Virus record (IMG/VR): IMGVR_UViG_3300022074_005559
DNA length: 64,000 nt
Direction: 5' to 3' (one strand)
DNA from: a virus
Taxonomy: Duplodnaviria; Caudoviricetes
Made by a program: the position numbers and the translations under genes. The notes beneath the pieces are model-generated. The model did not search any database. It had not been told where the DNA came from and saw only the letters and a program-made list of their open reading frames with translations. Of this stretch, positions 4,132 to 61,537 are shown piece by piece. How positions within the stretch are numbered: the stretch's first letter is position 1; each line of letters opens with the position of its first letter.

Positions 4132-4271
4132 TATATATGCATTCTCCTGATTGCATAGAGAAGCATACAAGGTGTTATATTATAGAGCAAATATGCCTCC
4201 CTTGTTAATATTACTTACGTCGCTAGAGCGATAGTTAAGTATCCATATATTTGATTAAGTGCGCATATAAT

Positions 4272-39657: not shown

Positions 39658-39686
39658 TTGACTTTCCACCCAAACTTAACTATAAT
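39658..39686 (+). promoter_or_regulatory. Sigma70-type promoter
   Basis: TTGACT-17nt-TATAAT. Confidence 0.7.
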
Positions 39687-39716: not shown

Positions 39717-40448
39717 ATGAAAGATTATCTACTCGACATTGTCAAGCATACACATTCGCTTGGCTTCATTAGTCTTGTAAAAGTTACAGGCACAGACAAA
39801 ACCACAACAATAGAAGGACTTGCAGAAGACCGAAGTGTTATTTTGCAAGCAACTACAAAGACTCCAGTAGCAGACTTTATTGGCACATTTGGTATGCCTA
39901 ATCTGGACAAACTTGGCGTCATCCTGCGTATCCCAGAATACAACGAAGATGCTAAGATCAGTATCAACACACAAGAGCGCAACGGTGAAGATGTACCAGT
40001 TGGCATTCATTTTGAAAATGCCGGCGGAGACTTTAAGAACGATTATCGCTTTATGGCAAGCGAGATCATTAATGAAAAGCTCAAGAGCGTGAAGATGCGA
40101 GCAGTTAACTGGGGCATTGAGTTTGAACCTAGTGTTGCAAGCATTCAACGTTTCAAGTTTATGATTAGTGCTAATAGCGAAGAAACAACATTCCTTGCTA
40201 AGACAGAAGGCACAGACCTTAAGTTCTTCTTTGGCGACCACAGTACACACGCAGGTAACTTTGTGTTCCAACATGATGTAGGTGGTGCTATTACACGTGG
40301 ATGGGCATGGCCCGTTGAACAAGTCAGCAAGATTCTCAGCCTCGGCGGTGATACAACATTTAAGTTCAGTGATGACGGTGTTGCTGAGATTGTTGTAGAC
40401 AGTGGACTTGCAGAGTATCGCTACTTGCTTCCTGCACAAAGCAAGTAA
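39717..40448 (+). CDS. DNA polymerase sliding clamp (gp45/PCNA-like)
   Basis: 243 aa two-domain beta-rich protein near PolB; FGMPNLDKL..YRFM..YRYLLPA pattern. Confidence 0.65.
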   Translation: MKDYLLDIVKHTHSLGFISLVKVTGTDKTTTIEGLAEDRSVILQATTKTPVADFIGTFGMPNLDKLGVILRIPEYNEDAKISINTQERNGEDVPVGIHFENAGGDFKNDYRFMASEIINEKLKSVKMRAVNWGIEFEPSVASIQRFKFMISANSEETTFLAKTEGTDLKFFFGDHSTHAGNFVFQHDVGGAITRGWAWPVEQVSKILSLGGDTTFKFSDDGVAEIVVDSGLAEYRYLLPAQSK

Positions 40449-41065
40449 TGGCAGACTTCTTTCGTCCTCGTTCTTATGCTATGAAAGTTGATCCAACGCT
40501 GAAATATGCGTGGATCAACATTCCTAAAAACGGAAGTAGTTTCATACAAAAAGTACTAGACGACAATGCTTGGAATGATGTACCTGATGACTTAATTAAC
40601 AGCATTGCAGAATCTCCTAGCATAAAGAAACTTGTTGTGTTACGCGATCCTGTAGAACGCTGGATCAGTGGCTTTGCACAATGTATGAGTGATCAACACA
40701 TTGACATATTGGGTTTGCTAGACAATGATAGATTTAAAAGCACTGTTATGCTGAATCCAGTATATGATGATCATACAGAATATCAACATAGATTTATAGG
40801 TAATGCACAAAACTTAGTGTATATCTATATGGCAAAAAAAAGACCTAACGAATTTTATAGACTACTTAGTGCTTGGATTAGAAAAACTGGCGGTGTTGCT
40901 GATTTTGATAACTGGCGAGATCCTGTAAACCCTGCAAAAAATAACGCTAATAAACTTGCAATCTGCAATAAACTTCGTGAACAGTTTTACAAAGACAGAA
41001 CATTAAAAGACTTACACAAGAAAGACTACGAACTGCTTAACAAATATGACAAATTTACCAACTAA
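40448..41065 (+). CDS. Sulfotransferase (Sulfotransfer_2-like)
   Basis: WINIPKNGSSFI (5'-PAPS loop), VLRDPVERWISGF (3'-PAPS motif), HKKDYEL. Confidence 0.7.
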   Translation: MADFFRPRSYAMKVDPTLKYAWINIPKNGSSFIQKVLDDNAWNDVPDDLINSIAESPSIKKLVVLRDPVERWISGFAQCMSDQHIDILGLLDNDRFKSTVMLNPVYDDHTEYQHRFIGNAQNLVYIYMAKKRPNEFYRLLSAWIRKTGGVADFDNWRDPVNPAKNNANKLAICNKLREQFYKDRTLKDLHKKDYELLNKYDKFTN

Positions 41066-42548
41066 CTTAACAGCAAATCAAAACGACTACGCTGTATTTT
41101 TGCCAGCACTCAGTACATTCTATGCACTGTTTGTAGGCAGACAACGCAGAGGTCTACTGCCTTATGATGAAAATCTAAAAGCAAGTGGCACACCTTACAT
41201 TGATTCTGCACGTCTCCCACAGGGGCTGCCGCATGGTGTAGAAGGTCTGAACTGGCTTGCACCCGAAGGACTATGGAAGTACAAGTGGAGCCTACACAGT
41301 GCTGGACATGCTAGTTTGGATCTTGAAAAAGACCTGTATCGCGAAGATATGTATCGTGTACGCAATAGAGAAACCAGTTGGCTGCTAGGCGACTCAGGTG
41401 GCTTTCAGATTGGTAAAGGCAAGTGGGAAGGTGATTGGAGAGCTGGCAGTGGTTGTCCACAAGCACAAAAGAAGCGTGAAGGTGTGCTGCGTTGGATGGA
41501 CAAGTTCATGGACTATGGCATGATTTTGGATATTCCTGCCTGGGTAGACAGATCGCCAGAAGGCAGTGCTGCTAGTAAGATCAGCAGTTATCAAGAAGCC
41601 GCAGATGGCACAAAGTACAACAACGAATACTTTATTAAACACAGAGACGGTAGTTGTAAGTTTCTAAATGTGCTACAAGGCGAAAACTTTGCTCAAGCAG
41701 ATGACTGGTATGAGCAAATGAAACACTTTAGTGACCCTAAACAATATCCAGATGCACACTTTAATGGCTGGGCAATGGGCGGGCAAAACATGTGTGATCT
41801 GCATCTTGCACTACGCCGTGTTGTTATCCTTGGACATGATGGATTACTAGAAAAGGGCAAGCAAGACCTCATGCACTTCTTGGGCACCAGTAAACTAGAA
41901 TGGGCAATGGTACTTACTGCTATACAACGCGGTATTCGCAAGCAGTTCAATGAGAACTTTACTGTAACATTTGACTGTGCAAGTCCTTTCCTTGCTACAA
42001 GCAATGGCACACAGTACACAGGCTACAGACTTGACCACGAGGACAAGTGGAGTTACATTATGGAAAAGTCTCCAGATGATAAAGCACTACATGCAGACAC
42101 TACTCCATATGACGATTATTGTAGTAAACTCTATGACAACTGGATGCCTAGTCCACTCTCATCAATGATGAAACTAAATGACATTACTGTTTATAGTCCT
42201 ACATGTGTAAACCGTATGGGCGAACAAACAAACACTAGTTGGGATAGTTTCAGTTATATGCTGATGATGAATCATAATGTTTACACACATTTACGCAGTG
42301 TGCAAGAAGCAAATCGAGTATATGATGAGGGCAAGTATCCGTATATGTTAGTGAATGACACATTCGATAAACAAGAAGTAAAAGAGGTTATTGCTAGAAT
42401 CTTTGAAATAGATGATCGAGATAAACAACTACAAATGATTGATGATCATCAACGTCTTTGGATGCGTGTAGTAGGTACACGAGGACATGTTGGTAAAAAG
42501 AGTGTGAACAGTAGCGCACAGTTCTTTAGTTTGTTTGAGGAAGCGTAA
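41046..42548 (+). CDS. dpdA: TGT-family 7-deazaguanine DNA transglycosylase (DpdA-like)
   Basis: LGDSGGFQ, MILDIP, NVLQG, GWAMGG, MHFLG, VTFDCASP, MMNHN; no CxCxxC Zn motif. Confidence 0.75.
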   Translation: MTNLPTNLTANQNDYAVFLPALSTFYALFVGRQRRGLLPYDENLKASGTPYIDSARLPQGLPHGVEGLNWLAPEGLWKYKWSLHSAGHASLDLEKDLYREDMYRVRNRETSWLLGDSGGFQIGKGKWEGDWRAGSGCPQAQKKREGVLRWMDKFMDYGMILDIPAWVDRSPEGSAASKISSYQEAADGTKYNNEYFIKHRDGSCKFLNVLQGENFAQADDWYEQMKHFSDPKQYPDAHFNGWAMGGQNMCDLHLALRRVVILGHDGLLEKGKQDLMHFLGTSKLEWAMVLTAIQRGIRKQFNENFTVTFDCASPFLATSNGTQYTGYRLDHEDKWSYIMEKSPDDKALHADTTPYDDYCSKLYDNWMPSPLSSMMKLNDITVYSPTCVNRMGEQTNTSWDSFSYMLMMNHNVYTHLRSVQEANRVYDEGKYPYMLVNDTFDKQEVKEVIARIFEIDDRDKQLQMIDDHQRLWMRVVGTRGHVGKKSVNSSAQFFSLFEEA

Positions 42549-43423: not shown

Positions 43424-44343
43424 TGACTAGACTATTATACACCACAGGCGATGGTGTATTTAAAGAAACTGAATACGTTATTGCTCCGTTACAAGACAAT
43501 GAGATTCGTGTTCGAGCTGTGATGACAGGAGTTTGTCGCAGTGATGTTGCCATGATGAATGGCGACTTTGGCCCACTTCCGTTAGGCATGCAAGGACATG
43601 AAGGACTTGCACAGGTTATGGAGTTGGGCAGTGGTGTAAGAGATGTACAGATCGGCGACTTTGTAGCGACTAGAGGCGAGCCGGCATATGCTGATGAGTA
43701 TAATGTACGATCTTTTGAATATGTTGTCGTTCCAGGTAAAGATCCTAAATGGATACTGGAACCTATTGCATGTGGAATCAACTGTGTGTTACAATCGCAG
43801 ACTGCAATAGATTCGCTCTGTGCGAATACAACAACACCACTGCCCCGTGCGGTGATAATCGGCAGTGGATTTCTTGCAAAGATTGTGTTGCGCACATTCT
43901 CTATTCTTTATCCTAACATAAGTGTAGACGTAGTTGGTTCTAGTAATGAAGAATATTTCAGCGAGAATGGTAGTCCACTGTTGGTTGATTTCGACGGCAC
44001 TTACGATATTGTAGTAGACCTTAAAGAAGACGACCGTGTATTCAACACAGACTGTGTAAATGAAAACGGGCTTGTTATTATGGCAACTGAAAAGCCAAAT
44101 GGTGTGGACACAACCTTTAGTCACTTCTTATGGAAGGCTATCACAATGGTGTTCCCAAGTCCAAGAGCTCCAACATTTTATGATGCAATGCTATTGGCTA
44201 GAGATTGGCAAATGGATGACTATTTAGATGTTGAGGACTTTTGGACAAAAGGCTACAATAGAGACACAGAATGGCAGCAAGCATTTGAAGATGCAAACAA
44301 TCGTACAGGCAACTATGGTAGAGGTTATATTCAATGGGACTAG
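43423..44343 (+). CDS. Zn-dependent (MDR) dehydrogenase
   Basis: GVCRSD, GHEG, GDFV, EPIAC, VIIGSGFL. Confidence 0.85.
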   Translation: MTRLLYTTGDGVFKETEYVIAPLQDNEIRVRAVMTGVCRSDVAMMNGDFGPLPLGMQGHEGLAQVMELGSGVRDVQIGDFVATRGEPAYADEYNVRSFEYVVVPGKDPKWILEPIACGINCVLQSQTAIDSLCANTTTPLPRAVIIGSGFLAKIVLRTFSILYPNISVDVVGSSNEEYFSENGSPLLVDFDGTYDIVVDLKEDDRVFNTDCVNENGLVIMATEKPNGVDTTFSHFLWKAITMVFPSPRAPTFYDAMLLARDWQMDDYLDVEDFWTKGYNRDTEWQQAFEDANNRTGNYGRGYIQWD

Positions 44344-44846
44344 ATACTAACAAGCGACAGGAAGTTGTATACTTCACAGGCACAGAAGTAGAACACACAG
44401 CAATGTATGGTGAGCAAACACTGTTTGTTGTTGGGGTACAACCTTGTAATGAAATACAACAACGAGCAGATGCACATGGTATCAAACATTTGTACTTTGG
44501 TACAAGTCAAAGTTTTGCACCTGAGAGCGAAGCAGATTGGACTGCTTGGGAAAACATGATCAAAGCATTGCTTAGTGCAGGCTATTGGTGTACACTAGAC
44601 TATGATGTATTCTATGTTAAAGAAGTATTAGAACTTGGATTTGATGAACACAATAACTTCATTAACATGATTTCAGTTAAACTACCATATATTAAGCAGT
44701 TCAACTACAATGCTACACTGAAGTTAGATGACAACACTTGGGGAGATACTAACTCGGGTGTTTGGTGCCATAGCATACACAGTTTAATGGATCGCCGTGT
44801 GTACACTGATTGGAAAGATTATACAGGAGATCAATCCGTTGACTAG
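44334..44846 (+). CDS. Conserved hypothetical protein in deazaguanine cluster
   Basis: 170 aa; TLFVVG, HLYFG, TNSGVWCH. Confidence 0.6.
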   Translation: MGLDTNKRQEVVYFTGTEVEHTAMYGEQTLFVVGVQPCNEIQQRADAHGIKHLYFGTSQSFAPESEADWTAWENMIKALLSAGYWCTLDYDVFYVKEVLELGFDEHNNFINMISVKLPYIKQFNYNATLKLDDNTWGDTNSGVWCHSIHSLMDRRVYTDWKDYTGDQSVD

Positions 44847-45438
44847 ACTGTTTGCATGTGGAGATAGTTTTACATACGGACATGAACTAAGTGATTGTCC
44901 TAGTAACAACCATCCAACACACAGTATGCTGACTTACAGTGCTTTGACTGCAAAACATTTGGGTACCGAATATGTTTGTTTAGCAGAAGGTATGGCGGCA
45001 AATAATAGTATACTAAAACAGATTGAAAGTGCTGATATCACTGCAAATGATACTGTATTAGTTATGTGGACTTTTGCACAACGTTATGCACTTATGTTAG
45101 ATCAAGGATACTACACATTAGGACTAGACGAACATAAGTGGTGGTGGACAAATGTAGACCAAAGTTCAGAGCAGTGTTTGAATAGGACTACGGATTTTAT
45201 ACTTGCAGGACATCAGATCCTAAATAAAATAGGATGCAACTACATTTTTTTGTGTAATAATATTGAACTACAAAACAAAATACAGTATAATACAAGTTAT
45301 ATAGATACAGAAAGATGGATGTTTCTAGATAAACATGACGAAATGATTAATCACGATTCACCACATACATTACACCCCGGAGACAGTGTACACAATAGTC
45401 TCTATAAACAACTAGTAAAGGCAAAACTAAATGGCTGA
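44797..45438 (+). CDS. SGNH/GDSL-like hydrolase-fold protein
   Basis: FACGDSFTYG, AANN, VMWTFAQR, LHPG..H. Confidence 0.5.
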   Translation: MCTLIGKIIQEINPLTRLFACGDSFTYGHELSDCPSNNHPTHSMLTYSALTAKHLGTEYVCLAEGMAANNSILKQIESADITANDTVLVMWTFAQRYALMLDQGYYTLGLDEHKWWWTNVDQSSEQCLNRTTDFILAGHQILNKIGCNYIFLCNNIELQNKIQYNTSYIDTERWMFLDKHDEMINHDSPHTLHPGDSVHNSLYKQLVKAKLNG

Positions 45439-45913
45439 AATAGATAACATGATGCTTAACGCAATGCGCGAAGATGCAATGAAAACACAGTTAACAAAAA
45501 GCAAAAGAAGTATTTGGGTAACATTCCAAAAGGAAGGTGTACACAAGTATCCTGCTGCTTTAGAAGATCCTAAACTAGCAACAGGAGATTGGGATGATGT
45601 ATCGTTTCTTGGGTATCCTCATCGTCATATGTTTCATTTCCGGGTGTCAATCGAAGTGTACCACGATGATAGAGAAATCGAGTTCATCCAGTTCAGCAGA
45701 TGGTTGCAAAGACTGTACGATATGGGAACAGGTGAAGGAGTCGACGGTGCCGTGGATAAAGTGCTCGATCTTGACTACAAGTCGTGTGAAATGATTGCAG
45801 ATGATTTATTCTTAGAGATCCGTAAAAAGTACGGAGATCAAAGAGAAGTAACTATTGAAGTAAGCGAAGATGGTGAGAATGGTTGCACTGTCTTTTTTCC
45901 TAGAGCCAGATAA
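45431..45913 (+). CDS. dpdL: QueD-like T-fold protein (DpdL-like, putative CDG decarboxylase)
   Basis: LGYPHRHMF matches LxxxHRHxF; DREIEF, SCEMIA, VSEDGENG. Confidence 0.65.
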   Translation: MAEIDNMMLNAMREDAMKTQLTKSKRSIWVTFQKEGVHKYPAALEDPKLATGDWDDVSFLGYPHRHMFHFRVSIEVYHDDREIEFIQFSRWLQRLYDMGTGEGVDGAVDKVLDLDYKSCEMIADDLFLEIRKKYGDQREVTIEVSEDGENGCTVFFPRAR

Positions 45914-45924
45914 GGAGATATACC

Positions 45925-46185
45925 GTGGCTGTAAAATATAATAAAGAAGCATACGACAAGGTCTGGGCTGACCTTGATGATTTTAAACGCTTTTGTAAAG
46001 AGTTTGGATGGGCATATGACGAAGCCGATTTGTATCGTGCTGAAGCACCTGCTTATGCAGAGTATACTCGCTTTAAGCAAGGTACTCGTATTCCTAAAAA
46101 CTGGATGCGGGATGCCAAGTTCCGTTTGAACCAGTATCGCGATAATAATCAAAAGGGTGGTCGCTACAACAGCGGTCGTAGGTAA
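45925..46185 (+). CDS. Hypothetical protein
   Basis: 86 aa, AAGGAG SD, GTG start. Confidence 0.6.
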   Translation: MAVKYNKEAYDKVWADLDDFKRFCKEFGWAYDEADLYRAEAPAYAEYTRFKQGTRIPKNWMRDAKFRLNQYRDNNQKGGRYNSGRR

Positions 46186-46187
46186 CA

Positions 46188-47276
46188 ATGGGTACTGTTT
46201 ATATTGTGGACATCGAAGCGGTTGACACTCGCTACACAAAGCAATGGAAGGAACATCTTCCTGATCAGCTTCAACGTGCTCTAATACAGGATACCGCTAT
46301 TCTTGCAGAAGTTGAAGTGATTAGCGGCGGAGATGTTCCACAAGCAACTACACCTGGTGCTTTCCTAAACTTTGGAGGCACAAATGTATACAAGAGCAAT
46401 CAACTACAACAGATTGCTACACTGTTCTGTGAGGGCAAAGTTCGTAACGGAGATTACTTCTTGTATACGGATGCTTGGAACCCTACTGTTATCCAGTTAC
46501 GCTACATGGCTGAACTCCTTGGAGTTGACATACGCATTGGCGGCTTGTGGCATGCTGGTAGTTATGATCCACAGGACTTCCTAGGTAGATTAATAGGCAA
46601 TAAACCTTGGGTACGTTTTGCTGAACAAAGTATGTTTGAATGTTATGATGATAACTTCTTTGCTAGTCAGTTTCATATTGATATGTTCAGCAAAACCTTT
46701 AGTCTACAAAACAGAATCGTATCTGTACAGGATAAAATCAAACGTGTTGGTTGGCCCATGGAATATCTTAATACAGGGCTTGAACAATATAAAGGTATGG
46801 AAAAGCGTGATCTTATTCTTTTCCCACATCGTATTGCTCCAGAGAAACAACCTGAAATCTTCCGTGATCTTGCAGACAGTATGCCAGAGTATGAGTTTGT
46901 TGTGTGCCAAGAGAAAGAGCTTAGTAAAGTAGAATATCATAATCTACTAGGCGAAGCAAAGATGGTGTTCAGTGCAAACTTACAAGAAACACTGGGTATT
47001 AGTTGGTATGAAGGTGCTGTTGTAGGCGCACTGCCTATGGTTCCTAATAGACTAAGTTATAGTGAAATGGCGGACAGTGATTTCTTATATCCTAGTGAAT
47101 GGACTGAAAGTTATGATAAATACTTACAGCATAAACAAGACCTTATGCGTTTTATCAAAGACTATATGGAAAACTACACAAAGTTTCTCCCAGCACTCCA
47201 TACACAGGTTAAAAAACTAGAAACTGAATTCTTCAGTGGCAAAGCACTTTATAACAATATCCGAGAAAGTATCTAA
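46188..47276 (+). CDS. GT4/GT-B glycosyltransferase resembling DUF3524/GTDC1 (QTMAN) family
   Basis: ILFPHRIAPEKQPEIF; QETLGISWYEG..GALPMVPNRLSYSEM..FLYP. Confidence 0.7.
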   Translation: MGTVYIVDIEAVDTRYTKQWKEHLPDQLQRALIQDTAILAEVEVISGGDVPQATTPGAFLNFGGTNVYKSNQLQQIATLFCEGKVRNGDYFLYTDAWNPTVIQLRYMAELLGVDIRIGGLWHAGSYDPQDFLGRLIGNKPWVRFAEQSMFECYDDNFFASQFHIDMFSKTFSLQNRIVSVQDKIKRVGWPMEYLNTGLEQYKGMEKRDLILFPHRIAPEKQPEIFRDLADSMPEYEFVVCQEKELSKVEYHNLLGEAKMVFSANLQETLGISWYEGAVVGALPMVPNRLSYSEMADSDFLYPSEWTESYDKYLQHKQDLMRFIKDYMENYTKFLPALHTQVKKLETEFFSGKALYNNIRESI

Positions 47277-48505
47277 TGAATATAGCATTTATAGGCACAG
47301 GCAAACTAGGCATGCCTTGTGCTGAAGAAATAGCAAAAGCAGGTCATAGTGTAACAGGATATGATGTTGCTAAAGTAAAAAGTGAACTAGTTGAAGTCAA
47401 AGATACTATTGCAGAAGCAGTTAAGTTTGCAAAGATAGTTTTTGTAGCAGTTCCTACTCCGCATGATCCGGCATATGATGGTCGTGCTCCTACTGCACAT
47501 TTAGAACCAAAAGACTTTAGTTACGACATCGTTAAAGATGTACTGCGTGAGTGTGATAGAGTAATGAATCCTGCGCAGATGATTGTGCTTATTAGCACAG
47601 TACTACCTGGCACAGTTCGCAGAGAACTAGAACCTATTGTTACTAACACACGCTTTGTATACAATCCATATCTTATTGCTATGGGCAGTGTTGCTTGGGA
47701 CTTTGTAAATCCTGAAATGGTTATGATCGGTACAGAAGATGGTGACGAAACTGGAGATGCAAAAGAGCTAGTAAACTTTTATAAAACTGTTATTGAGAAT
47801 GATCCTAGATATGTAGTTGGTACTTGGGATGAATGCGAATGTATCAAAGTTTTTTATAACACATTTATCAGTACAAAACTTGGACTAGCAAATATGATAC
47901 AGGATGTTGCAATGAAGCAAGGCAATATCAATGTCGATGTAGTTACTGATGCACTTGCGAAAAGTACCAAACGCATTATGGGACCGCAGTATATGACTGC
48001 TGGCATGGGCGATGGCGGTGCTTGTCACCCACGTGATAACATTGCACTACGTTGGATGGCACAGGAACTTGGCTTAGGGTATGATATTTTTGATGCTATT
48101 ATGAATGCTCGTGAGATTCAAGCAAAGAATCTAGCAGAGTTTTTAGTAGCGCAAGCAAAGGAACACGATCTACCTGTGCTCATACACGGTGAAGCATACA
48201 AGCCAGATGTACCGTATAAAGACGGTAGTTACAGTATACTGGTAGAACATTATTGTAGAGAACTTGGTTATCATCCTATTATGGTAGATCCTCATACAAG
48301 TCCTCAGCGTGGTCCTTTCAAAGCAGTTGTACTACTTGGTCACAGTAATCAAGTAACCTACAAATACACAGAAAAAGAAACTACACAAACTTTCTATTGT
48401 CTGTTCGAAGAAGGCAGCGTAATCGTTGACCCATGGAGACTATATCGTAATGAAGAAAACAAGTATAAAATCATCCATTACGGAAACACACGACAGGTGG
48501 CATAA
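47276..48505 (+). CDS. UDP-glucose/GDP-mannose dehydrogenase family protein
   Basis: IGTGKLG, VAVPTP, STVLPGT, IKVFYN, GGACHPRD, YKPDV. Confidence 0.88.
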   Translation: MNIAFIGTGKLGMPCAEEIAKAGHSVTGYDVAKVKSELVEVKDTIAEAVKFAKIVFVAVPTPHDPAYDGRAPTAHLEPKDFSYDIVKDVLRECDRVMNPAQMIVLISTVLPGTVRRELEPIVTNTRFVYNPYLIAMGSVAWDFVNPEMVMIGTEDGDETGDAKELVNFYKTVIENDPRYVVGTWDECECIKVFYNTFISTKLGLANMIQDVAMKQGNINVDVVTDALAKSTKRIMGPQYMTAGMGDGGACHPRDNIALRWMAQELGLGYDIFDAIMNAREIQAKNLAEFLVAQAKEHDLPVLIHGEAYKPDVPYKDGSYSILVEHYCRELGYHPIMVDPHTSPQRGPFKAVVLLGHSNQVTYKYTEKETTQTFYCLFEEGSVIVDPWRLYRNEENKYKIIHYGNTRQVA

Positions 48506-49010
48506 AGGGCATATAGAACCTTTTTGGACCGCTAAAAGTTACAAAAAACTAAACTATCAGTTGTTTCCTTTTCCCAACGAAAAAGATCTAGTGATTTGGA
48601 GACGGCAAGGCTATGTACATCCTAGCACTCATTATAGCGGCATGCTTTGCGATATGAGAGAAACTCAAGCAGAATGGAACGACGATATTATCCAGTGGTT
48701 TGCAGATACATACAGTGCTAAAGACGTAGGTACAAGTTACTATCGTATGGGCACAGATGTTATATTGCCTACGCATCAAGATACATATTTTAGATACAGA
48801 GACCTATATAACACTGCATTAGAAGATTGTTTTCGTGTCATTATTTTTTTAGCAGACTGGAGTAGTGGGCACATGTTTGAAATAGACAATGCACCTGTTA
48901 CAAACTGGAAAGCAGGCGATTATGTTTATTGGGAAAGCGATGTGCCTCATATGGCGGCAAACATGGGTCTTGTAAAAAGATATACCCTGCAACTTACAGG
49001 TCACAAATGA
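48426..49010 (+). CDS. Fe(II)/2OG-type oxygenase-like protein
   Basis: PTHQD, PHMAAN, RYTLQLTG; similar to 8284 protein. Confidence 0.6.
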   Translation: MTHGDYIVMKKTSIKSSITETHDRWHKGHIEPFWTAKSYKKLNYQLFPFPNEKDLVIWRRQGYVHPSTHYSGMLCDMRETQAEWNDDIIQWFADTYSAKDVGTSYYRMGTDVILPTHQDTYFRYRDLYNTALEDCFRVIIFLADWSSGHMFEIDNAPVTNWKAGDYVYWESDVPHMAANMGLVKRYTLQLTGHK

Positions 49011-49612
49011 CATTAACTTATGATACACTAAAGCAGTTTGAAAGTGTACTAAGTGATTATACAGGCGCACCTTATGTTGTGCTAACTGACTGCTGCACAC
49101 ATGCATTAGAACTTTGTTTTAGATACAAAAATCCAGGTCCTGTAACATGCAATGCGCACACATATCTCAGTGTTCCTATGATGTTACACAAGTTAAATAT
49201 TCCTTTCTTTTGGGATCATGAACCGTGGGAATATGAATACAGGTTAGCACCAAGCAACATCTGGGATAGTGCAAGAGGACTAAAACAAGGAATGTATCGT
49301 GCAGGAGCATTACAATGCCTTAGTTTTGGAAACAGTAAAAGATTAGAACTACAAGCCGGCGGTGCTATTCTTACAAGTAACAAACAGGATTATATTGCCT
49401 TAAAGCGTATGGCATATGATGGCAGAGATTTAGATATCACGCCGTGGCAATCACAAGAATCATTTAGCGTAGGATATCATTATGGCATGAGATTAGAAAC
49501 TGCCAAAAGAGGTATTGAAATGCTAACAAATGGTAACCTTAAAGACTTACAAACACAAGCAGTAACTTATCCTGATTGCAGTCTAATAAAGATTGACACA
49601 TTACCTAAATAA
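49007..49612 (+). CDS. Short DegT/DnrJ/EryC1/StrS-family PLP aminotransferase
   Basis: DCCTHALEL, WDSA, CLSFGNSK (PLP Lys), GGAILT, GYHY; only 201 aa. Confidence 0.75.
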   Translation: MTLTYDTLKQFESVLSDYTGAPYVVLTDCCTHALELCFRYKNPGPVTCNAHTYLSVPMMLHKLNIPFFWDHEPWEYEYRLAPSNIWDSARGLKQGMYRAGALQCLSFGNSKRLELQAGGAILTSNKQDYIALKRMAYDGRDLDITPWQSQESFSVGYHYGMRLETAKRGIEMLTNGNLKDLQTQAVTYPDCSLIKIDTLPK

Positions 49613-49660: not shown

Positions 49661-50347
49661 ATGACAACAAGTAACGTAATAACACAACGCCTACGCAATG
49701 CAGGTGCTAGGTATTGGGCAAGTGACAACATTGCCTCTTATCTATATGAAGGTGAAAAAGAACAGCTCATAGACGAACTTACTACTAAGTTTGAAGATGT
49801 ACTGGATAGCCTTATTATTGATCGTGCAAACGATCCTAACAGCAATGACACAGGCAGACGCCTTGCAAAGATGTACATCAACGAATTAATGAGCGGTCGT
49901 TATGATCCTATGCCCAACGCAACTGCATTTCCTAATCATGTCGAAGAAGGCTACAAAGGCATGCTGGTGGTGCGCAGTGAACTTAAGAGTGTGTGTTCGC
50001 ATCATCACCAGCCTGTGAGTGGCGTGGCATACATTGGTATTATTGCTGCAGAAAAACTTATTGGACTAAGCAAGTATACACGCATTGCACAATGGTGTGC
50101 TAGACGCGGTACACTACAAGAAGAACTTTGCAACGATATTGCTCGTGAGATTATGGATGCAACCGGCAGTGAAAATGTAGGTGTTTACATCCAAGCAACA
50201 CACGGTTGTTGTGAGAATAGAGGCATTATGGCACATAGCAGTCTAACACAAACTACTGTGCTAGAAGGTGCATTTACTGAAGATGCAGGTACAAAGAAAG
50301 AGTTTTTCGATAACATTAAACTCCAACAAGAGTTTGCACCTAGATAA
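49661..50347 (+). CDS. folE: GTP cyclohydrolase I
   Basis: TGRRLAKM, SVCSHHHQP, GLSKYTRI, LQEEL, HGCCENRG. Confidence 0.95.
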   Translation: MTTSNVITQRLRNAGARYWASDNIASYLYEGEKEQLIDELTTKFEDVLDSLIIDRANDPNSNDTGRRLAKMYINELMSGRYDPMPNATAFPNHVEEGYKGMLVVRSELKSVCSHHHQPVSGVAYIGIIAAEKLIGLSKYTRIAQWCARRGTLQEELCNDIAREIMDATGSENVGVYIQATHGCCENRGIMAHSSLTQTTVLEGAFTEDAGTKKEFFDNIKLQQEFAPR

Positions 50348-51375
50348 TGTATACAGATCTAAGTAACTACTTGTGCGGAAAAACACAACTACCTGTTCTA
50401 CCAAGTTCGATAGATATTGACTTGACTAACGTGTGTAATCAGGATTGTTTTTATTGCAATAGTGCAGACTTTAGAGCAAACTTCTTAACTACGCCAAACA
50501 AAGAAAGATTTATCGAACTTATAGATAGACTTGCAGATTGGCGTAGTCATACACCTTTGAGTGTAGGCACTGTGCGTAGCATTAACTTTACTGGCGGTGG
50601 GGAGCCTACTGTACACCCTCACTATCACGAAATCGTAGAGTACGCTATCGACAAAGGTTTTCTTGTAACTATGATTACTAATGCAAGTAAACTTGATAGA
50701 TTAGCAAAACACTTACCAAGAGAAAAAGCACAGCGTATCATTTGGATTGGTGTTGATGTAGACAGTGCAGTTGATACCACTTACGAACGTGTTAGACGTA
50801 GTATGACAACTTTTGATATGCTACCTAGAGTCAAAGAAAATATTAAACTTGCAGTAGATGCAGGTATTAATGTTGATATCAAAGCTCTGCTTATGAAAAA
50901 TAACACAAGCGATGCAGAACTACAAGCATTGTTTGATATGGTTAAAGACACAGGTGCAAGACAGTTACACATAAGACCTTTGTTTGATTTAGAAACACAA
51001 AAAATATTCGAAGTTACAGAAAGTCTAAAGCAAAAGATTAAAGCAATATCTACACTAACTAACGTAGAGTACAACTTGCCCGAAAACAGGAAAGAAACTA
51101 GAACCTATAGTAAATGCCATCAAATGTTTTTGTATACAATCTTTGCCGCTAATGGAGATGTAAATGTTTGTTGCGAAAGCAGAGGTGATCGTAGTTTTAC
51201 TATTGGCAACTGGCTAGAGCAAGATCCAAGAGATTTTTGGATGGGCGAACGGCATATGCAAGTATACAATAAAACTAACACTATGCTTTGCCCGCCTTGT
51301 AAACCTAACAAGATTAATAACATCATCCAGAAAGACATAGACAACGACGCTTTGCTTGAAAGGCAAATAATGTGA
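50347..51375 (+). CDS. Radical SAM protein with C-terminal SPASM/twitch domain
   Basis: CNQDCFYC, FTGGGEPT, ITNA; KC..NVCC..CPPC. Confidence 0.85.
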   Translation: MYTDLSNYLCGKTQLPVLPSSIDIDLTNVCNQDCFYCNSADFRANFLTTPNKERFIELIDRLADWRSHTPLSVGTVRSINFTGGGEPTVHPHYHEIVEYAIDKGFLVTMITNASKLDRLAKHLPREKAQRIIWIGVDVDSAVDTTYERVRRSMTTFDMLPRVKENIKLAVDAGINVDIKALLMKNNTSDAELQALFDMVKDTGARQLHIRPLFDLETQKIFEVTESLKQKIKAISTLTNVEYNLPENRKETRTYSKCHQMFLYTIFAANGDVNVCCESRGDRSFTIGNWLEQDPRDFWMGERHMQVYNKTNTMLCPPCKPNKINNIIQKDIDNDALLERQIM

Positions 51376-52298
51376 TTGTTGCTCGTAGTCCTTTGCGTGT
51401 TAGTTTTGCCGGCGGAGGTAGTGACCTTTCGCCGTTTGTAGATACCTATGGCGGTAGTAATCTTAATGCTACAATAGATAGATATGCATACTGTACAATA
51501 GAACCAGCAGACACTTATTCAACAAACGTACCTGAAATAGTGGACCATTGTGTGGACTATGTTTGCCCTCAAAGACCTCGCAGTAAAATCATACTACACA
51601 GCGACACAGAACAAGGCAGTGGACTTGGAAGCAGTAGTGCATTGGTTGTTGCATGCATGAAAGCACTAGGATATCAAGGCACACAAAAAGAGCTTGCTGA
51701 AGATGCAATCTATGTAGAACGTAAGTTGTGCGGATTTCCTGGTGGTAAACAAGATCAGTTTGCTACAGTATACGGCGGATTTAACTATATAGAGTTTGAC
51801 AAAGACGGCACTAATACTATCAGTCAGATTCATCTAAGCGACGAAGCCAAACGTAAACTTAACTATAGCCTAATATTATACAACATTGGTGTTAGCAGAA
51901 CAAACAACACAGTGCTAGATCGTAATATAGAAGGTCTTAAAAATAACACTGCAATGATTGAAAGCACAAAAGAGCTTGTGCAAAACTGTAGCGAAACACT
52001 TCAGTATTTGGTAACCGGAAACCTAAAGAAACTTGCATACAGTTTTGAAAAGAACTGGGAGATCAAAGCAGATTTGCATAGTGGTATTACTAGTAATCCG
52101 TTCGTCGAAGTCAAAGATACAGGAATCAAAAATGGTGCGTTAGGTAGTAAAATATGCGGTGCCGGAGGTGGTGGTCATATGATATTTGTAGTAGATCCGT
52201 TAGAACGACACAGCCTACTTAAAGCATTACAACCTTTGCCTGGACACGTTGAACATTTTTCGTTTACAAATACAGGATGTGAAAGTTGGGAACAATAG
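51372..52298 (+). CDS. GHMP sugar kinase (HddA heptose-7-phosphate kinase-like)
   Basis: SPLRVSFAGGGSD, GSGLGSSSA, GGKQDQ, KICGAGGGG. Confidence 0.85.
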   Translation: MIVARSPLRVSFAGGGSDLSPFVDTYGGSNLNATIDRYAYCTIEPADTYSTNVPEIVDHCVDYVCPQRPRSKIILHSDTEQGSGLGSSSALVVACMKALGYQGTQKELAEDAIYVERKLCGFPGGKQDQFATVYGGFNYIEFDKDGTNTISQIHLSDEAKRKLNYSLILYNIGVSRTNNTVLDRNIEGLKNNTAMIESTKELVQNCSETLQYLVTGNLKKLAYSFEKNWEIKADLHSGITSNPFVEVKDTGIKNGALGSKICGAGGGGHMIFVVDPLERHSLLKALQPLPGHVEHFSFTNTGCESWEQ

Positions 52299-52636
52299 AA
52301 GAACATCCTAAGGGCTGGGGCAGAGAACTTTGGATTGTAAACACCAATGGATATTGCGGAAAGATATTAGAGTTTGATGTAGGTAAACGTTGTAGTTTTC
52401 ACTATCACTTGCTAAAAGATGAGACATTTTATCTTCAAGAAGGCAGCATAGAACTACATACTAGTTGGGAAGATGACTTATCCAATGCAGAAAAAACCGT
52501 GTTAAAGCCAGGTGATAAGTATCATATACCACAAGGACTTAGACATCAAATGGTTGCACTAGAATCAAGTAAACTGTTTGAGTTTAGCACTACACATTAT
52601 GAATCAGATAGCTATCGAGTAGTCAAAGGCGACTAA
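52286..52636 (+). CDS. Cupin, sugar isomerase-like
   Basis: KGWGRELW, SFHYH..KDETF, GLRH. Confidence 0.75.
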   Translation: MGTIEEHPKGWGRELWIVNTNGYCGKILEFDVGKRCSFHYHLLKDETFYLQEGSIELHTSWEDDLSNAEKTVLKPGDKYHIPQGLRHQMVALESSKLFEFSTTHYESDSYRVVKGD

Positions 52637-53511
52637 TGAAAATCTCTACACATAACGAATGGGCACCTCTTAAAGAGGTAGTAGTTGGAATGGCAGCAGG
52701 TGCTAACAAGCCTGATGGTTGTCATTTTGAAAAGCCAGGTGCATACCCCGGACATGTTACTGCACAAGCAGACATGGACTTGGATCGCTTTGCTCGCACA
52801 CTAGAACAAGAAGGTGTAAAAGTACACAGACCCAAGTACAATAACTTTGCACAAACTGCTGGCATGTACAACTACTGCCCACGAGATAGACTGTTAGTAG
52901 TTGGTAATACTGTTGTTGATTGTAATATGCAATATCCATGCAGAGAACAAGAGAGCAGATACTATGATTTTGTTCTCAAAAGTGCAAAAAATGTGCTTAC
53001 AGTGCCTCGCAACAGTAGAGTATTTTTTGATGCAGCTAATGTTCTTAGGCTTAACAAAACATTACTTTATCTAGTAAGCCCAAGTGGCAACCGCCAGGGT
53101 GCAAAATGGTTGCAAAAACATTTTAAAGAGTATACAATAGAAATAACTGAAACATACAGTGGTATTCATATTGACAGTACATTTGCTCCTGTAGCAGATG
53201 GACTTGTTGTAGTAAACAAGGATCGTGTTACAAAGCGAACTTTACCACAATGTTTTAAAGATTGGGAGGTGATTTGGCTTGGTGCTGAAGATCTTCCGAA
53301 TAAGAGTTTTGCAGGGCAGGCTTTTGCCAGCAACTATATACTGCTTAACTTTTTTATGATCCGTCCTAACTTGGCGGTGATAGATGATGCGCCAAAACTT
53401 AAACAGGCGTTATCAGCAAATGGTGTTGACAGTTATACAATACCATTTACACACAGTCGTACACTTGGTGGTGGTCACCATTGTTGTACTTTAGATCTAC
53501 ATAGGAGATAA
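52636..53511 (+). CDS. Amidinotransferase (StrB1/glycine amidinotransferase family)
   Basis: NEWAPLKEVVVG, YCPRD, FDAAN, HIDST, GGGHHCCT. Confidence 0.85.
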   Translation: MKISTHNEWAPLKEVVVGMAAGANKPDGCHFEKPGAYPGHVTAQADMDLDRFARTLEQEGVKVHRPKYNNFAQTAGMYNYCPRDRLLVVGNTVVDCNMQYPCREQESRYYDFVLKSAKNVLTVPRNSRVFFDAANVLRLNKTLLYLVSPSGNRQGAKWLQKHFKEYTIEITETYSGIHIDSTFAPVADGLVVVNKDRVTKRTLPQCFKDWEVIWLGAEDLPNKSFAGQAFASNYILLNFFMIRPNLAVIDDAPKLKQALSANGVDSYTIPFTHSRTLGGGHHCCTLDLHRR

Positions 53512-53514
53512 AAT

Positions 53515-54804
53515 ATGTTAGAAAAAATGTTTGGACTTGCCAAAGCAGGAACCTCAGTTAAAACTGAAGTGATGGCTGGCATTGCAACATTCCTGACAAT
53601 GGCTTACATTACAGTAGTCAACCCTGCTATTCTTTCAACTGAAGGAACTGGTATGGCGTTTGGTGCTGTGTTTACTGCAACTATTATTGCGGCAGTAGTG
53701 GGCACATTGATTATGGGACTATGGGCAAACTGGCCCATTGCACTTGCACCTGGTATGGGACTTAATGCGTTCTTTGCTTTTGGTGTAGTGTTTGGTATGG
53801 GTTACACATATCAACAAGCACTTGCCGCTGTATTTGTAGCAGGTATTGTGTTTATTGCACTCAGTGTTACGCCGGCACGAAAGTACATTATTAATAGTAT
53901 TCCCAAGAGTATGAAACTGGGTATCGGTGCAGGCATTGGCTTGTTCCTTGCTATTATTGGACTCAAGAACGCTGGCGTTGTTGTAGATAATCCTGCGACA
54001 TTAGTTGGTCTAGGTGACGTTGCTAGTGTACCAGTATTGCTTGCAGGCTTAGGCTTTGCGATCATGGCAATCCTAGACAAGCGCGGAGTACCAGGAAGTA
54101 TTATCATTGGCATCCTTGCTACAAGTATTATTGCTTGGGTATTTGGTGTTTCTGATCTTGCTGGTGTAGTTGGTGCTATTCCTAGCCCAGAGCATGCATT
54201 TAGCATGGACTTTAGTTTGCTGTTCACAGCAGGCTTTATTGGAACTGCTTTTGCATTCTTGTTTGTTGACTTTATGGATACAGCAGGCACACTTACCAGT
54301 GTTGCTAACTTGACAGGAAAAGTGAACAAAGATGGCGAAGTAGAAGGCATTGATCGTGCATTGCTTGCTGACTCAGTTGCTACCTCAGTGGGTGCATTGG
54401 CAGGAACAAGTAACACTACTTCATACATTGAAAGTGGTGCAGGTGTCAAAGAAGGCGGACGTACAGGACTAACAGCAGTTGTTGTTGCTGGTTTATTCTT
54501 GTTGTGTTTGGTGTTTGCACCTCTAGCACAGAGCATTCCTGCATTTGCAACAGCACCTGCATTGGTGTTTATTGCAACATATTTCCTACGCAATATTGCA
54601 GATATTGCATGGGACGATGTAACAGAGTATGCACCTGCGGTTTTAGCAGCTATTATCATGCCACTAACATTTAGTATCGCATATGGTATTGCTATTGGTT
54701 TTATTGCTTATGTTGTTATTAAAGCACTAAGTGGTAACACCACAGACATTAACAAAGGCAGTGTTGCACTTGCCGCTGTTAGTGTACTCTACTTCTTGGT
54801 GTAA
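53515..54804 (+). CDS. NCS2/AzgA-family purine permease
   Basis: EVMAGIATFLTMAYI, APGMGLNAFF, DFMDTAGT, YIESGAG..GGRTGLT. Confidence 0.93.
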   Translation: MLEKMFGLAKAGTSVKTEVMAGIATFLTMAYITVVNPAILSTEGTGMAFGAVFTATIIAAVVGTLIMGLWANWPIALAPGMGLNAFFAFGVVFGMGYTYQQALAAVFVAGIVFIALSVTPARKYIINSIPKSMKLGIGAGIGLFLAIIGLKNAGVVVDNPATLVGLGDVASVPVLLAGLGFAIMAILDKRGVPGSIIIGILATSIIAWVFGVSDLAGVVGAIPSPEHAFSMDFSLLFTAGFIGTAFAFLFVDFMDTAGTLTSVANLTGKVNKDGEVEGIDRALLADSVATSVGALAGTSNTTSYIESGAGVKEGGRTGLTAVVVAGLFLLCLVFAPLAQSIPAFATAPALVFIATYFLRNIADIAWDDVTEYAPAVLAAIIMPLTFSIAYGIAIGFIAYVVIKALSGNTTDINKGSVALAAVSVLYFLV

Positions 54805-58590: not shown

Positions 58591-58767
58591 ATGATAAGCA
58601 AACCAGCAATAGTATTCGCACTAGAAAGCGAAATAAAACACGCAGAGTCATGCCTGCAACCGCATGACACAGGACACATAAACACAGCCATTGGTTGGAT
58701 GCAACATCGTGTCCGCGAACTTAAACAGGAACTAAAGGAACAACATGAAAAAGACATACATCAGTGA
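58591..58767 (+). CDS. Small hypothetical protein (58 aa, not in ORF track)
   Basis: MISKPAIVFALESEIKHAESCLQPHDTGHINTAIGWMQHRVRELKQELKEQHEKDIHQ. Confidence 0.5.
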   Translation: MISKPAIVFALESEIKHAESCLQPHDTGHINTAIGWMQHRVRELKQELKEQHEKDIHQ

Positions 58768-59221
58768 ACAGCAAATCAAAAGTGGTGTACTAGACATCAT
58801 TAGACAAATGTTGCAGGATGACTGGCGTCCTGATTACATTGTAGGCATTACACGAGGCGGACTTATTCCTGCTGTATTGATGAGCCATTATACAGGCATC
58901 AAAATGCATACACTGGATGTCAGACTGCGTGATGGTGGAGAAGATGGTCCTGAATCTAATACATGGCTAGCTGAATATGCAAGCCAAGGTAAAAAAATTC
59001 TTGTGTTAGATGACATCAACGACACAGGAGAAACATTTAAGTGGATTGTGCAGGACTGGCAAGCCAGTGTTATTGACCATATTGATTGGGGCAACACAGT
59101 ACGTTTTGCGGCAATCATCGACAACGTTCCAAGTGAAATGGATGTAGAATACTCTAGCATGGAGATTAACAAGTTGGAAGATCCAAGTTGGATTGTATTT
59201 CCATTTGAGGAGTGGTGGTAA
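58745..59221 (+). CDS. Type I phosphoribosyltransferase (xanthine-guanine PRT-like)
   Basis: VGITRGGLIPA, ILVLDDINDTGET, WIVFPFE. Confidence 0.88.
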   Translation: MKKTYISEQQIKSGVLDIIRQMLQDDWRPDYIVGITRGGLIPAVLMSHYTGIKMHTLDVRLRDGGEDGPESNTWLAEYASQGKKILVLDDINDTGETFKWIVQDWQASVIDHIDWGNTVRFAAIIDNVPSEMDVEYSSMEINKLEDPSWIVFPFEEWW

Positions 59222-59862: not shown

Positions 59863-60342
59863 ATGCCCTATACAAGTACAAAAACATACGGACACAACAT
59901 TGGACTCAGTGCAGTGTTTCGTCAACCACATGCAGATCACAGTCATTGTAGATTCTTGCATGGCTACAGTCTAGCATTTAAGTTTACATTTGCATGCAGT
60001 GATTTAGATCACAGAAACTGGGTACAGGACTTTGGTGGACTAAAAGAACTGAAGAAATGGCTTGAAGAACAGTTTGATCACAAAGTTGTTATTGACAGTC
60101 AAGATCCTCACATGGAAGACTTTTATCATCTAGAGAAACTTGGACTTGCAGAGATTACAGTAATGGATGGTGTAGGCGCAGAGAAGTTCGCAGAACATGC
60201 TTGGCGCTTTGCAGATGAACTTGTACGCAATCAAACAGCAGGTCGTGTAAGTTGTGAAAGCGCAGAGTGCAGTGAGCATGGCGCAAACAGTGCAATCTAT
60301 ACACCATGGCAGGTGCGTAAAGAAACATTCACTGATGTATGA
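59863..60342 (+). CDS. queD: 6-carboxy-5,6,7,8-tetrahydropterin synthase
   Basis: HSHCRFLHGY, VQDFGGLK, FDHK, EHGANSA. Confidence 0.9.
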   Translation: MPYTSTKTYGHNIGLSAVFRQPHADHSHCRFLHGYSLAFKFTFACSDLDHRNWVQDFGGLKELKKWLEEQFDHKVVIDSQDPHMEDFYHLEKLGLAEITVMDGVGAEKFAEHAWRFADELVRNQTAGRVSCESAECSEHGANSAIYTPWQVRKETFTDV

Positions 60343-61297
60343 AAGTCCAGTATTTGAAAAAGGTTATCCCTCACATGAAGCAGTTAATAGGAAGCCAGCA
60401 ATGAAACTTAGATACAGTGAAGCGTTTTACAGCGTACAAGGTGAAGGCAAGTTTGTAGGAGTACCCAGTGTGTTCCTACGCACATTTGGTTGTAACTTTC
60501 GTTGTATGAACTTTGGACTAGGCAGAAATGAGCCTAGTAGAGAAGAGAAGCACAATGCAGGACAGCGTTACAACGAAGAAGTAAAATCTTTGATTGACGC
60601 CGGAGTAGATAAAACAACAGAAAAGTTTGAAGACTTGCCTATCATTCACACAGGCTGTGATACATATGCAAGTATCTATCCAGAGTTTAAACATTTTAAC
60701 AAGCAAGCAACAGTTGATGAAGTAGTAGAACATCTGCTATCTCTTACACCTAACGGAAAATGGGTACAGGATAACGGACAAGATGTGCATCTTATCATTA
60801 CCGGCGGTGAGCCATTGTTAGCATGGCAAAGACTTTATGTAGACTTATTCGAACATCCAAAGATGAAGGACTTAAGAAATGTTACTTTTGAAACAAATAC
60901 AACACAAATGCTCTACCCTGAGCTCGCAGACTATTTCAACAATCAGGACAGGATTACAGTCACTTGGTCTTGCTCCCCAAAGTTATCAGTTAGCGGAGAG
61001 TCTTGGACAGACGCTATTAAGCCTGATGTGGCTGTTAGTTATAGCAATGTACGCGGCAGTGACATTTATCTTAAATTTGTCGTGGCTGATAGGGTTGATT
61101 TTGAAGAAGTCACTAAGGCTGTTGAAGAGTATCGTGGCGCCGGGATCGAGTGTCCAGTTTATCTTATGCCGCTTGGCGGACGTTCGGAAGAGTATAGCCT
61201 CAATGTTAAAGATGTCGCCGAAGCATGTATGGAGCGAGGTTGGCGCTTCACACCAAGGCTCCACATCAGTCTCTTCGGAAACGCTTGGGGAACCTAG
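60335..61297 (+). CDS. queE: 7-carboxy-7-deazaguanine synthase (radical SAM); start 60335 or 60401
   Basis: FYSVQGEG, VFLRTFGCNFRC..GCDT, ITGGEPL, ETNT, CSPKL, LKFVV, WRFTPRLH. Confidence 0.9.
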   Translation: MYESPVFEKGYPSHEAVNRKPAMKLRYSEAFYSVQGEGKFVGVPSVFLRTFGCNFRCMNFGLGRNEPSREEKHNAGQRYNEEVKSLIDAGVDKTTEKFEDLPIIHTGCDTYASIYPEFKHFNKQATVDEVVEHLLSLTPNGKWVQDNGQDVHLIITGGEPLLAWQRLYVDLFEHPKMKDLRNVTFETNTTQMLYPELADYFNNQDRITVTWSCSPKLSVSGESWTDAIKPDVAVSYSNVRGSDIYLKFVVADRVDFEEVTKAVEEYRGAGIECPVYLMPLGGRSEEYSLNVKDVAEACMERGWRFTPRLHISLFGNAWGT

Positions 61298-61372: not shown

Positions 61373-61537
61373 ATGAAAATATTTGTTAAACCAGCACTAA
61401 CATCAGCAAGTGCTTTCTGTTTAATGCTTGTAGCATTTAAATGGGGAGAAGGAATGATGATGTTAGCAGGATTGCTAATGCTAGCACATGCTGTCTGGGA
61501 TATTGCAGAAACAGTTAAGGATCGTCAAGATGTTTGA
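61373..61537 (+). CDS. Small 2-TM protein (54 aa, not in ORF track)
   Basis: AGGA SD; MKIFVKPALTSASAFCLMLVAFKWGEGMMMLAGLLMLAHAVWDIAETVKDRQDV. Confidence 0.5.
   Translation: MKIFVKPALTSASAFCLMLVAFKWGEGMMMLAGLLMLAHAVWDIAETVKDRQDV

Follow-up and report, generated by a model that had tools for sequence, protein, structure and literature searches.

A predicted glycosyltransferase related in sequence to queuosine mannosyltransferase accompanies the deazaguanine DNA-modification genes of a marine jumbo phage

The window analyzed here, a 64,000-nucleotide stretch of DNA from a marine jumbo phage (Duplodnaviria; Caudoviricetes; IMG/VR record IMGVR_UViG_3300022074_005559), encodes at positions 46188..47276 (+) a predicted glycosyltransferase (GT) of 362 aa, with a GT-B fold of the GT4 type and a C-terminal half related to the queuosine mannosyltransferase QTMAN. 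GT is a dedicated component of a 7-deazaguanine DNA-modification module that lacks QueC, and its link to the DpdA-like guanine transglycosylase of that module is strong, being held in every lineage examined. The reading we prefer, to which we give somewhat better than an even chance, is that GT glycosylates the deazaguanine that DpdA places in DNA, and does so after its insertion. So read, the module combines two known kinds of process, deazaguanine DNA modification and DNA glycosylation. The broader proposition, that these phages and a set of alphaproteobacterial islands with nuclease neighbours carry glycosylated 7-deazaguanine in their DNA, a sugar-bearing purine hypermodification due to a relative of QTMAN whose acceptor domain is new, and that the sugar is tailored further in the present lineage (to a uronic, amino or guanidino form), appears to us evenly balanced.

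The glycosyltransferase and its linkage to deazaguanine genes

The GT open reading frame (ORF) is stop-free over its 362 codons. A preliminary description of the window, made from the letters alone, had called the product a GT-B enzyme on the strength of several motifs, all of which are present: ILFPHRIAPEKQPEIF corresponds to I210-F225, QETLGISWYEG to Q266-G276, GALPMVPNRLSYSEM to G280-M294 and FLYP to F299-P302. The EX7E motif, a hallmark of GT4-type glycosyltransferases, is formed by E267-x7-E275, and in 40 sequences of 28-50% identity E275 is invariant and E267 nearly so. R215 and K220 of the motif FPHR..PEK are likewise nearly invariant; from general knowledge of GT4 enzymes we take them to be the basic residues that bind the donor phosphates. 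About 35 further positions are invariant or nearly so in the same set. An AlphaFold2 model built on 40 relatives (mean pLDDT 95, pTM 0.92) agrees with the motifs, showing two Rossmann-like domains in GT-B topology and whole-chain VIA-align Z scores of 22-26 to many GT4 structures. In the Foldseek/VIA-align comparisons, covering ~300-330 residues at ~3 Å, matches include sucrose-phosphate synthase (Z 26.3), BshA (Z 25.6), MshA (Z 24.7) and LmbT (Z 23.8). From motifs and model together we read GT as an intact, nucleotide-sugar-using, GT4-type (retaining-type) GT-B glycosyltransferase.

The window protein itself has no match in Pfam (even at E 10), NCBIfam or PHROG and none among PDB sequences by phmmer, and megablast of the 40-55 kb part of the window against 50,697 phage records returned no match. 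Its family is large. Of 1.84 billion representatives searched exhaustively with HMMER, 1248 (50% identity) matched at E <= 1e-3, a number that is, judged by these sequence scores, far beyond chance, and 264 at E <= 1e-30. A profile search gave at least 8000 clusters (90% identity), most of them of marine metagenomic origin, and the family is very abundant in marine viromes. Weak matches to PF00534 occur in 32/40 relatives (best E 6.5e-7), the homologue of Xanthomonas phage BUDD reaching 45.7 bits with a cut-off of 26.4. The best PDB profile match of the family is 8xsg, apparently an ordinary GT4 glucosyltransferase of Actinobacillus.

In the window, GT stands within a run of + strand genes (39717 to 49612) that overlap or are only a few bases apart, with consensus-like promoters at 39658, 43326 and 49593 and no convincing terminator between. 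The neighbours that the preliminary description gave for GT, namely dpdA, a DpdL-like gene and a nucleotide-sugar dehydrogenase, downstream of the sliding clamp, all lie where it placed them. The DpdA-like protein (41046..42548, +; 500 aa) has a tRNA-guanine transglycosylase (TGT) fold with DSGGFQ at residues 116-121, and all of the 50 best Foldseek PDB matches of its model (pLDDT 78) are TGTs, the best at E 1e-7. Searches with its sequence gave no Pfam match and were also empty against PDB sequences by phmmer and by profile. It is 33% identical to the protein upstream of GT in the PA5oct group of Pseudomonas phages, and its profile has no significant similarity (probability 2%) to DpdA3 of Cellulophaga phage phiST (259 aa). 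The DpdL-type T-fold protein (45431..45913, +; 160 aa) shares 29% identity with phiST DpdL (E 8e-8), and its LGYPHRHMF matches LxxxHRHxF, the signature of DpdL, a proposed decarboxylase of 7-carboxy-7-deazaguanine (CDG) whose activity is unproven (Cui, Hutinet et al. 2023, PMC10516641); by sequence, the window protein is a candidate for the same role. The remaining pathway genes encode FolE, a GTP cyclohydrolase I (49661..50347, +; E 2.4e-38), QueD of the PTPS family (59863..60342, +) and QueE, the radical SAM CDG synthase (60254..61297, +), whose true start is probably ~50 codons downstream of the listed GTG. QueC was not found among the ~50 window ORFs scanned.

This association is conserved well beyond the window. 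In 80 IMG/VR loci with GT identities of 66-76%, the gene order is polB, clamp, DpdA, g170, DpdL, (g86), GT, phosphoribosyltransferase, FolE, QueE, g129 and flap endonuclease. When three cultured-phage loci are added, DpdL is present in 82 and DpdA in 76 of the resulting 83 loci, most of the others being truncated contigs. GT also lies beside genes for DpdA-like, DpdL, FolE and QueE proteins in Sinorhizobium phage Phosso (47% GT identity), eleven PA5oct-group Pseudomonas phages (44%), Acidovorax phage ACP17 (37%), Burkholderia phage BCSR5 (26%) and Xanthomonas phages BUDD and X1 (24-26%), and metagenomic relatives at 29-30% keep the trio of GT, DpdL and DpdA. All 17 phage records with a full-length GT have DpdL, and 11 records, the phiST group included, have DpdL without GT. 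The preliminary description had itself named a lack of linkage between GT homologues and dpdA as one result that would refute its reading; linkage to both dpdA and dpdL was found in every lineage examined. QueC is absent from the GT-bearing Phosso, PAC2, ACP17 and a 256-kb marine contig, and BUDD has only a sub-threshold QueC match elsewhere in its genome. Because they are QueC-free, the GT-bearing modules cannot make preQ1 or queuosine.

The linkage extends to bacteria. A scan of 185,579 species genomes recovered full-length GT homologues (40-54% identity), among them proteins of isolates of Pelagibacterium, Ochrobactrum, Devosia, Methylobacterium, Aurantimonas, Shimia, Sulfitobacter and Magnetospirillum. 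The copies in alphaproteobacterial isolates each lie next to a DpdA homologue (L101-L110, L112-L114, L116-L117, L120, L123), in many cases with DpdL adjoining too. On a Pelagibacterium chromosome (L101:6083-11485) the order is DpdA, a Vut_1/YhhQ-like transporter, GT and an OLD-family ATPase-TOPRIM nuclease, and in Magnetospirillum (L114:6330-11088) a CoiA-nuclease-like protein precedes GT-DpdL-DpdA, with a HEPN protein also present. With nuclease neighbours seen in these two bacterial loci examined, the islands resemble a restriction-modification-type system and could be an undescribed one based on this modification.

Relationship to queuosine mannosyltransferase

QTMAN (GTDC1) mannosylates queuosine already present in tRNA, using GDP-mannose as donor and the cyclopentenediol hydroxyl of queuosine-34 as acceptor. 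The preliminary description had proposed that GT is QTMAN-like, citing motifs of the GTDC1/DUF3524 family. In the AlphaFold DB/Swiss-Prot set, the Drosophila tRNA-queuosine mannosyltransferase ranks only 22 for the GT model and is inseparable from MshA and glycogen synthases. Since this structure ranking could not single out QTMAN, the claim was tested by sequence with controls. The test set consisted of 14 bacterial proteins with the Pfam domain QTMAN_N (PF12038), taken from 401 genomes, and the control set of generic PF00534 proteins at 30 loci in five alphaproteobacterial genomes.

A hidden Markov model (HMM) of the GT family found 14/14 QTMAN_N proteins at 40-76 bits (E 1.6e-12 to 2.7e-23), with a best score of 7.7 bits among the generic GT4 controls. 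The reciprocal QTMAN HMM found 40/40 GT family members at 16-50 bits, the generic GT4 proteins scoring at most 10.4 bits. Alignment of the two profiles by hhalign gave 98% probability (E 1.9e-13) over query columns 151-330, with the common motifs FPHR..(E/D)K.PE and P-x-R-L-[SA]-Y-x-E around EX7E; the motif resemblance described earlier is present in this alignment and is upheld by the reciprocal searches. By these sequence comparisons the C-terminal half of GT is, among GT4 enzymes, specifically closest to QTMAN/GTDC1.

The N-terminal halves have no detectable similarity (hhalign probability 0.2%). PF12038 has no match in the window GT (E <= 10), nor is it among the 25 families most often matched by 40 GT relatives (E <= 1). 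The part of the claim that concerns the donor-binding C-terminal half is therefore retained, and membership in DUF3524/QTMAN, whose defining N-terminal domain is undetectable in GT, is not: on sequence grounds GT is a relative rather than a member of that family. As the similarity is confined to the C-terminal half, GT would combine a donor domain of QTMAN type with an acceptor domain that is new. Among structure neighbours of GT in the ESM Atlas, two QTMAN_N clusters (TM 0.75-0.77) lie among generic GT4 clusters (0.72-0.81).

The two enzymes share more than a GT4-type GT-B fold, since the function of each is bound up with a 7-deazaguanine that a TGT-family enzyme puts into nucleic acid. They differ in that QTMAN carries QTMAN_N and acts on queuosine-34 of tRNA, whereas GT modules lack QueC and have DNA as their proposed target. 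Bacterial QTMAN_N genes, unlike those for GT, stand alone: in ten neighbourhoods neither que nor dpd genes occurred, and no neighbour was conserved.

Proposed reaction and competing explanations

In the pathway that we propose, FolE, QueD and QueE would produce CDG, which the DpdL-type protein may convert to 7-deazaguanine, following the published but unproven proposal. The TGT-fold DpdA-like enzyme would then swap guanine in phage DNA for 7-deazaguanine, and GT would move a sugar from a nucleotide-sugar donor onto the inserted deazapurine. The phosphoribosyltransferase might salvage the guanine freed by DpdA and, together with a permease, recycle or import purine. In the lineage of the window, the 6-dehydrogenase, the oxidoreductases, the aminotransferase-, amidinotransferase- and sulfotransferase-like proteins and a GHMP kinase, all described below, probably elaborate the donor or the attached sugar. 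The analysis establishes the fold of GT, its catalytic motifs, its family relationships and the gene linkage; the deazapurine as acceptor, the transfer after insertion into DNA and the choice of sugar we infer. The acceptor class is supported by the C-terminal half being closest to QTMAN, an enzyme acting on a 7-deazaguanine nucleoside in nucleic acid. In addition, the DNA of the GT-bearing phage PA5oct contains a modified G, for which no base mass is given; it is resistant to several G-site restriction enzymes, and END nucleases that sense G modification target it (2025 preprint, PMC12191111).

Among known systems, the DpdL/DpdA system of phiST (PMC10516641), which yields 2′-deoxy-7-deazaguanosine (dDG), is like that of the window in having FolE, QueD, QueE, a T-fold protein with the DpdL signature and a TGT-family transglycosylase, and in having no QueC. 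It is unlike it in having MazG-like and kinase-like genes instead of a GT homologue and in the smaller size of its DpdA3, the core of the window module extending beyond that of phiST by GT, g170 and the phosphoribosyltransferase. The α- and β-glucosyltransferases of phage T4 (AGT and BGT) are likewise phage GT-B enzymes encoded alongside a base-modification pathway. They glucosylate hydroxymethylcytosine (hmC) already in DNA, so that their acceptor is a hydroxymethyl pyrimidine. By analogy with them, GT could add a second layer of modification against modification-dependent defences. They also differ from GT, lying outside its 50 best structural matches and depending on a hydroxymethylase family that is missing in 3/5 GT-bearing genomes. 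BshA and MshA resemble GT more closely in structure (Z 24.7-25.6, rmsd ~3 Å, 304-315 residues aligned), and the pairing of BshA with BshB has a parallel in related loci that pair GT with BshB-like or CE4 deacetylases. Their acceptors are malate and inositol phosphate. Unlike GT they have no link to nucleic acids, the identity is 10-12%, and generic GT4 proteins stay at or below the 7.7 bits given above against the GT HMM.

Several points weigh against glycosylation of the inserted base. At C7, 7-deazaguanine bears neither a hydroxyl nor an amine, and the only group that CDG provides is a carboxylate; we know of no precedent acceptor chemistry for a GT4 enzyme. Without a C7 hydroxyl in the acceptor, either the sugar would be held by an unusual linkage, of the C-glycoside or acyl-glycoside type, or DpdL makes a product other than the one proposed. 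The sugar is evidently not obligatory for the pathway, because phiST has DpdL, no GT homologue and plain dDG. Nothing ties GT directly to DNA, since its N-terminal (acceptor) domain has no detectable relative; neither AGT nor BGT is among the 50 best structural matches of its model, the top ones being enzymes whose acceptors are small molecules. With a median pI of 5.7 the GT family is acidic, which is uninformative on DNA binding because the DpdA family is acidic too. The literature searched gives no nucleoside mass data for any GT-bearing phage.

Those structural matches bear on the possibility that GT acts before insertion, on a free deazapurine base, a pterin or the CDG intermediate, and that DpdA inserts a base already bearing its sugar. 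The nearest solved structures are GT4 enzymes for small molecules (BshA, MshA, LmbT, SenB, and a tetrahydrobiopterin glucosyltransferase at Z 21.4), and they slightly favour this alternative. The eukaryotic TGT, moreover, accepts the bulky base queuine. In ACP17, GT lies between dpdL and dpdA, and expression of dpdL and dpdA without the intervening gene gave no dDG in E. coli (PMC10516641). Little can be read from this failure, however, since the phiST pair, from a phage without GT, was equally unsuccessful there. Both QTMAN and the T4 enzymes have the polymer as their substrate, and CE4 enzymes, one of which follows DpdA in locus L092, usually act on polymer-bound sugar. A hexose at C7 would, to our knowledge, be much larger than any known TGT substrate. 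We therefore consider action before insertion unlikely, although it is the alternative that survives best.

It is also conceivable that GT is merely an island neighbour with another acceptor, such as a hydroxymethyl pyrimidine in DNA, a protein, a host surface glycan or a soluble glycoside. The many sugar-metabolism genes in the window would fit, as would a more distant partial GT paralogue of the PhiXhv-12 group, which has GlmS and a BshB-like deacetylase as neighbours and lies apart from deazaguanine genes. The sugar-metabolism genes, however, are not conserved with GT, whereas adjacency to DpdA persists down to 26-30% identity in both phages and bacteria. A hydroxymethyl-pyrimidine acceptor in particular was set aside as unlikely because the ThyA-family genes needed to make such bases are absent from 3/5 GT-bearing genomes. 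Taken as a whole, an acceptor outside the deazaguanine pathway seems to us quite improbable.

The kinship of the C-terminal half with QTMAN, and the tRNAs encoded by the phage, could instead point to RNA, with GT acting like QTMAN on queuosine or another 7-deazaguanosine in host or phage tRNA. Against this, GT lacks QTMAN_N and co-occurs strictly with DpdA and DpdL in modules unable to make preQ1 or queuosine, two bacterial copies stand beside nucleases as in restriction-modification-like systems, and in PA5oct it is the DNA itself that is G-modified (PMC12191111), which leaves an RNA target very improbable. That GT has decayed, or serves DpdA as a structural partner without being catalytic, as the lack of a Pfam match for the window protein might suggest, is scarcely credible given the near-invariance of the EX7E glutamates, R215, K220 and ~35 other positions in 40 sequences and a model that is confident throughout.

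If glycosylation of the inserted deazaguanine is indeed the function of GT, a sugar on a deazapurine would be a new chemical class of DNA base, a purine counterpart of glucosyl-hmC. The phage DNA glycosylations known to us are on hydroxymethyl pyrimidines. All eight described 7-deazaguanine DNA bases carry small C7 substituents and none of those listed is glycosylated (Cui et al. 2023, PMC10516641), and no description of glycosylated deazaguanine in DNA was found in the literature searched, the coverage of which is incomplete. In vibriophage VP1, plain 7-deazaguanine fully replaces guanine, and many glycosylases target 7-deazaguanine (preprint), giving a selective reason for a further sugar layer. 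The sugar would then likely be an answer to defences recognising plain deazaguanine, and the question bears on phage escape from END nucleases and Dag glycosylases that target deazaguanine. Such a sugar could also explain how G is modified in PA5oct, a jumbo phage considered for therapy, and possibly the lack of dDG with ACP17 dpdL and dpdA in E. coli, and would show that queuosine glycosylation in eukaryotes and DNA modification in phages are linked by evolution. The position of GT beside nucleases in bacterial islands suggests a restriction-modification-like system of an undescribed kind. Since GT-bearing phages are already in culture, the reading is directly testable.

Variable sugar genes and other neighbours

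The gene for a nucleotide-sugar 6-dehydrogenase (47276..48505, +; 409 aa) overlaps the GT stop with its start. The protein keeps the catalytic Cys, and its best PDB matches are UDP-glucose dehydrogenase (7e-20) and GDP-mannose dehydrogenase (7e-15). Adjoining it is g194 (48426..49010, +), a possible cupin or oxygenase with an HxD...H pattern and no family match. The preliminary description had built on these two genes, suggesting a uronic acid as the sugar and the product of g194 as an oxygenase that makes the acceptor hydroxyl. Among the ~110 loci with a full-length GT, however, the 6-dehydrogenase follows GT in only four others (L004, L040, L055, L093) and g194 has homologues in ~5, so that g194 cannot be a general source of the acceptor hydroxyl; the uronic-acid idea, which rests on the 6-dehydrogenase, is not supported. 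Both are lineage-specific extras outside the core. Seven related marine loci (L013, L034, L056, L059, L064, L077, L078) have a second, distant nucleotide-sugar dehydrogenase-like gene (24-27% identity to that of the window), placed between polB and the clamp.

Other sugar-related genes of the window are similarly restricted. A Gfo/Idh/MocA oxidoreductase (42548-43423, +) and a Zn-dependent dehydrogenase of the MDR family (43390-44343, +) form an accessory pair present in 6/83 loci, and the sulfotransferase-like protein (40448..41065, +; PF03567, 25 bits), encoded between the clamp and DpdA, has a homologue in 1/83. A short DegT/DnrJ-like protein of aminotransferase fold (48929..49612, +; likely ATG start at 49008), also accessory, has ~200 aa and matches only the first 100 positions of a 360-position profile; it may for that reason not be a working aminotransferase. 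Between FolE and the remaining que genes lies a cassette (50347..54804, +) that is largely particular to the window lineage, close relatives having FolE directly followed by QueE. It encodes a radical SAM/SPASM protein that scores like MoaA or viperin, a GHMP heptose kinase resembling HddA (E 2e-51), a small cupin, a protein of amidinotransferase fold and an NCS2 purine permease. A 2-oxoglutarate-Fe(II) oxygenase (PF13640, 29 bits) at 59212-59793, directly upstream of QueD, occurs in 2/83 related loci.

Similar variable sugar genes appear in other lineages. In L092 (L092:9017-11891; 30% GT identity), the genes after GT encode DpdA, a CE4 polysaccharide deacetylase and a methyltransferase, and this arrangement hints that an N-acetylhexosamine is deacetylated after transfer. 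The partial GT paralogue of Xanthomonas phage PhiXhv-12 (L086:5651-8885; 27% identity over 61% of the length) adjoins GlmS and the BshB-like deacetylase, away from FolE and the deazaguanine genes of that phage. Non-conserved sugar genes cannot give GT its acceptor in general and fit better as variable tailoring of the sugar.

The conserved neighbours comprise the sliding-clamp homologue (39717..40448, +) at the head of the gene run; g170 (44334..44846, +), a core protein between DpdA and DpdL in 75/83 loci; the small ORF g86 (45925..46185, +) directly upstream of GT in 46/83; the type I phosphoribosyltransferase (58745..59221, +), a core gene in 73/83; and the core gene g129 (61488-61877), which has no family match. 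For g170, which also has no family match, no profile similarity to QueE or DpdL was found, nor do g86 and g129 resemble QueE by profile. For g170 an assignment as glycosyl hydrolase was rejected, the language-model score of 0.87 being below the reliable range. A DpdL-like sequence also occurs in Vibrio phage Bakedbeans, which has no GT homologue: its gp176 (L088:6227-7378; 383 aa) joins a DpdL-like C-terminal part (44% identity) to an unassigned N-terminal part of ~260 aa.

The remaining cargo of the window includes tRNA-Trp, tRNA-Glu and tRNA-Arg (2515-2762), PhoH (3382-4170, -), a TctA-family transporter (5622-7145), a ClpB-like double AAA+ ATPase (15653-17920), a 629-aa protein with a cytidylyltransferase-like domain (22382-24271), a 1239-aa protein with a zeta-toxin-like kinase domain (24882-28601) and a 1059-aa S8 subtilase (55410-58589).

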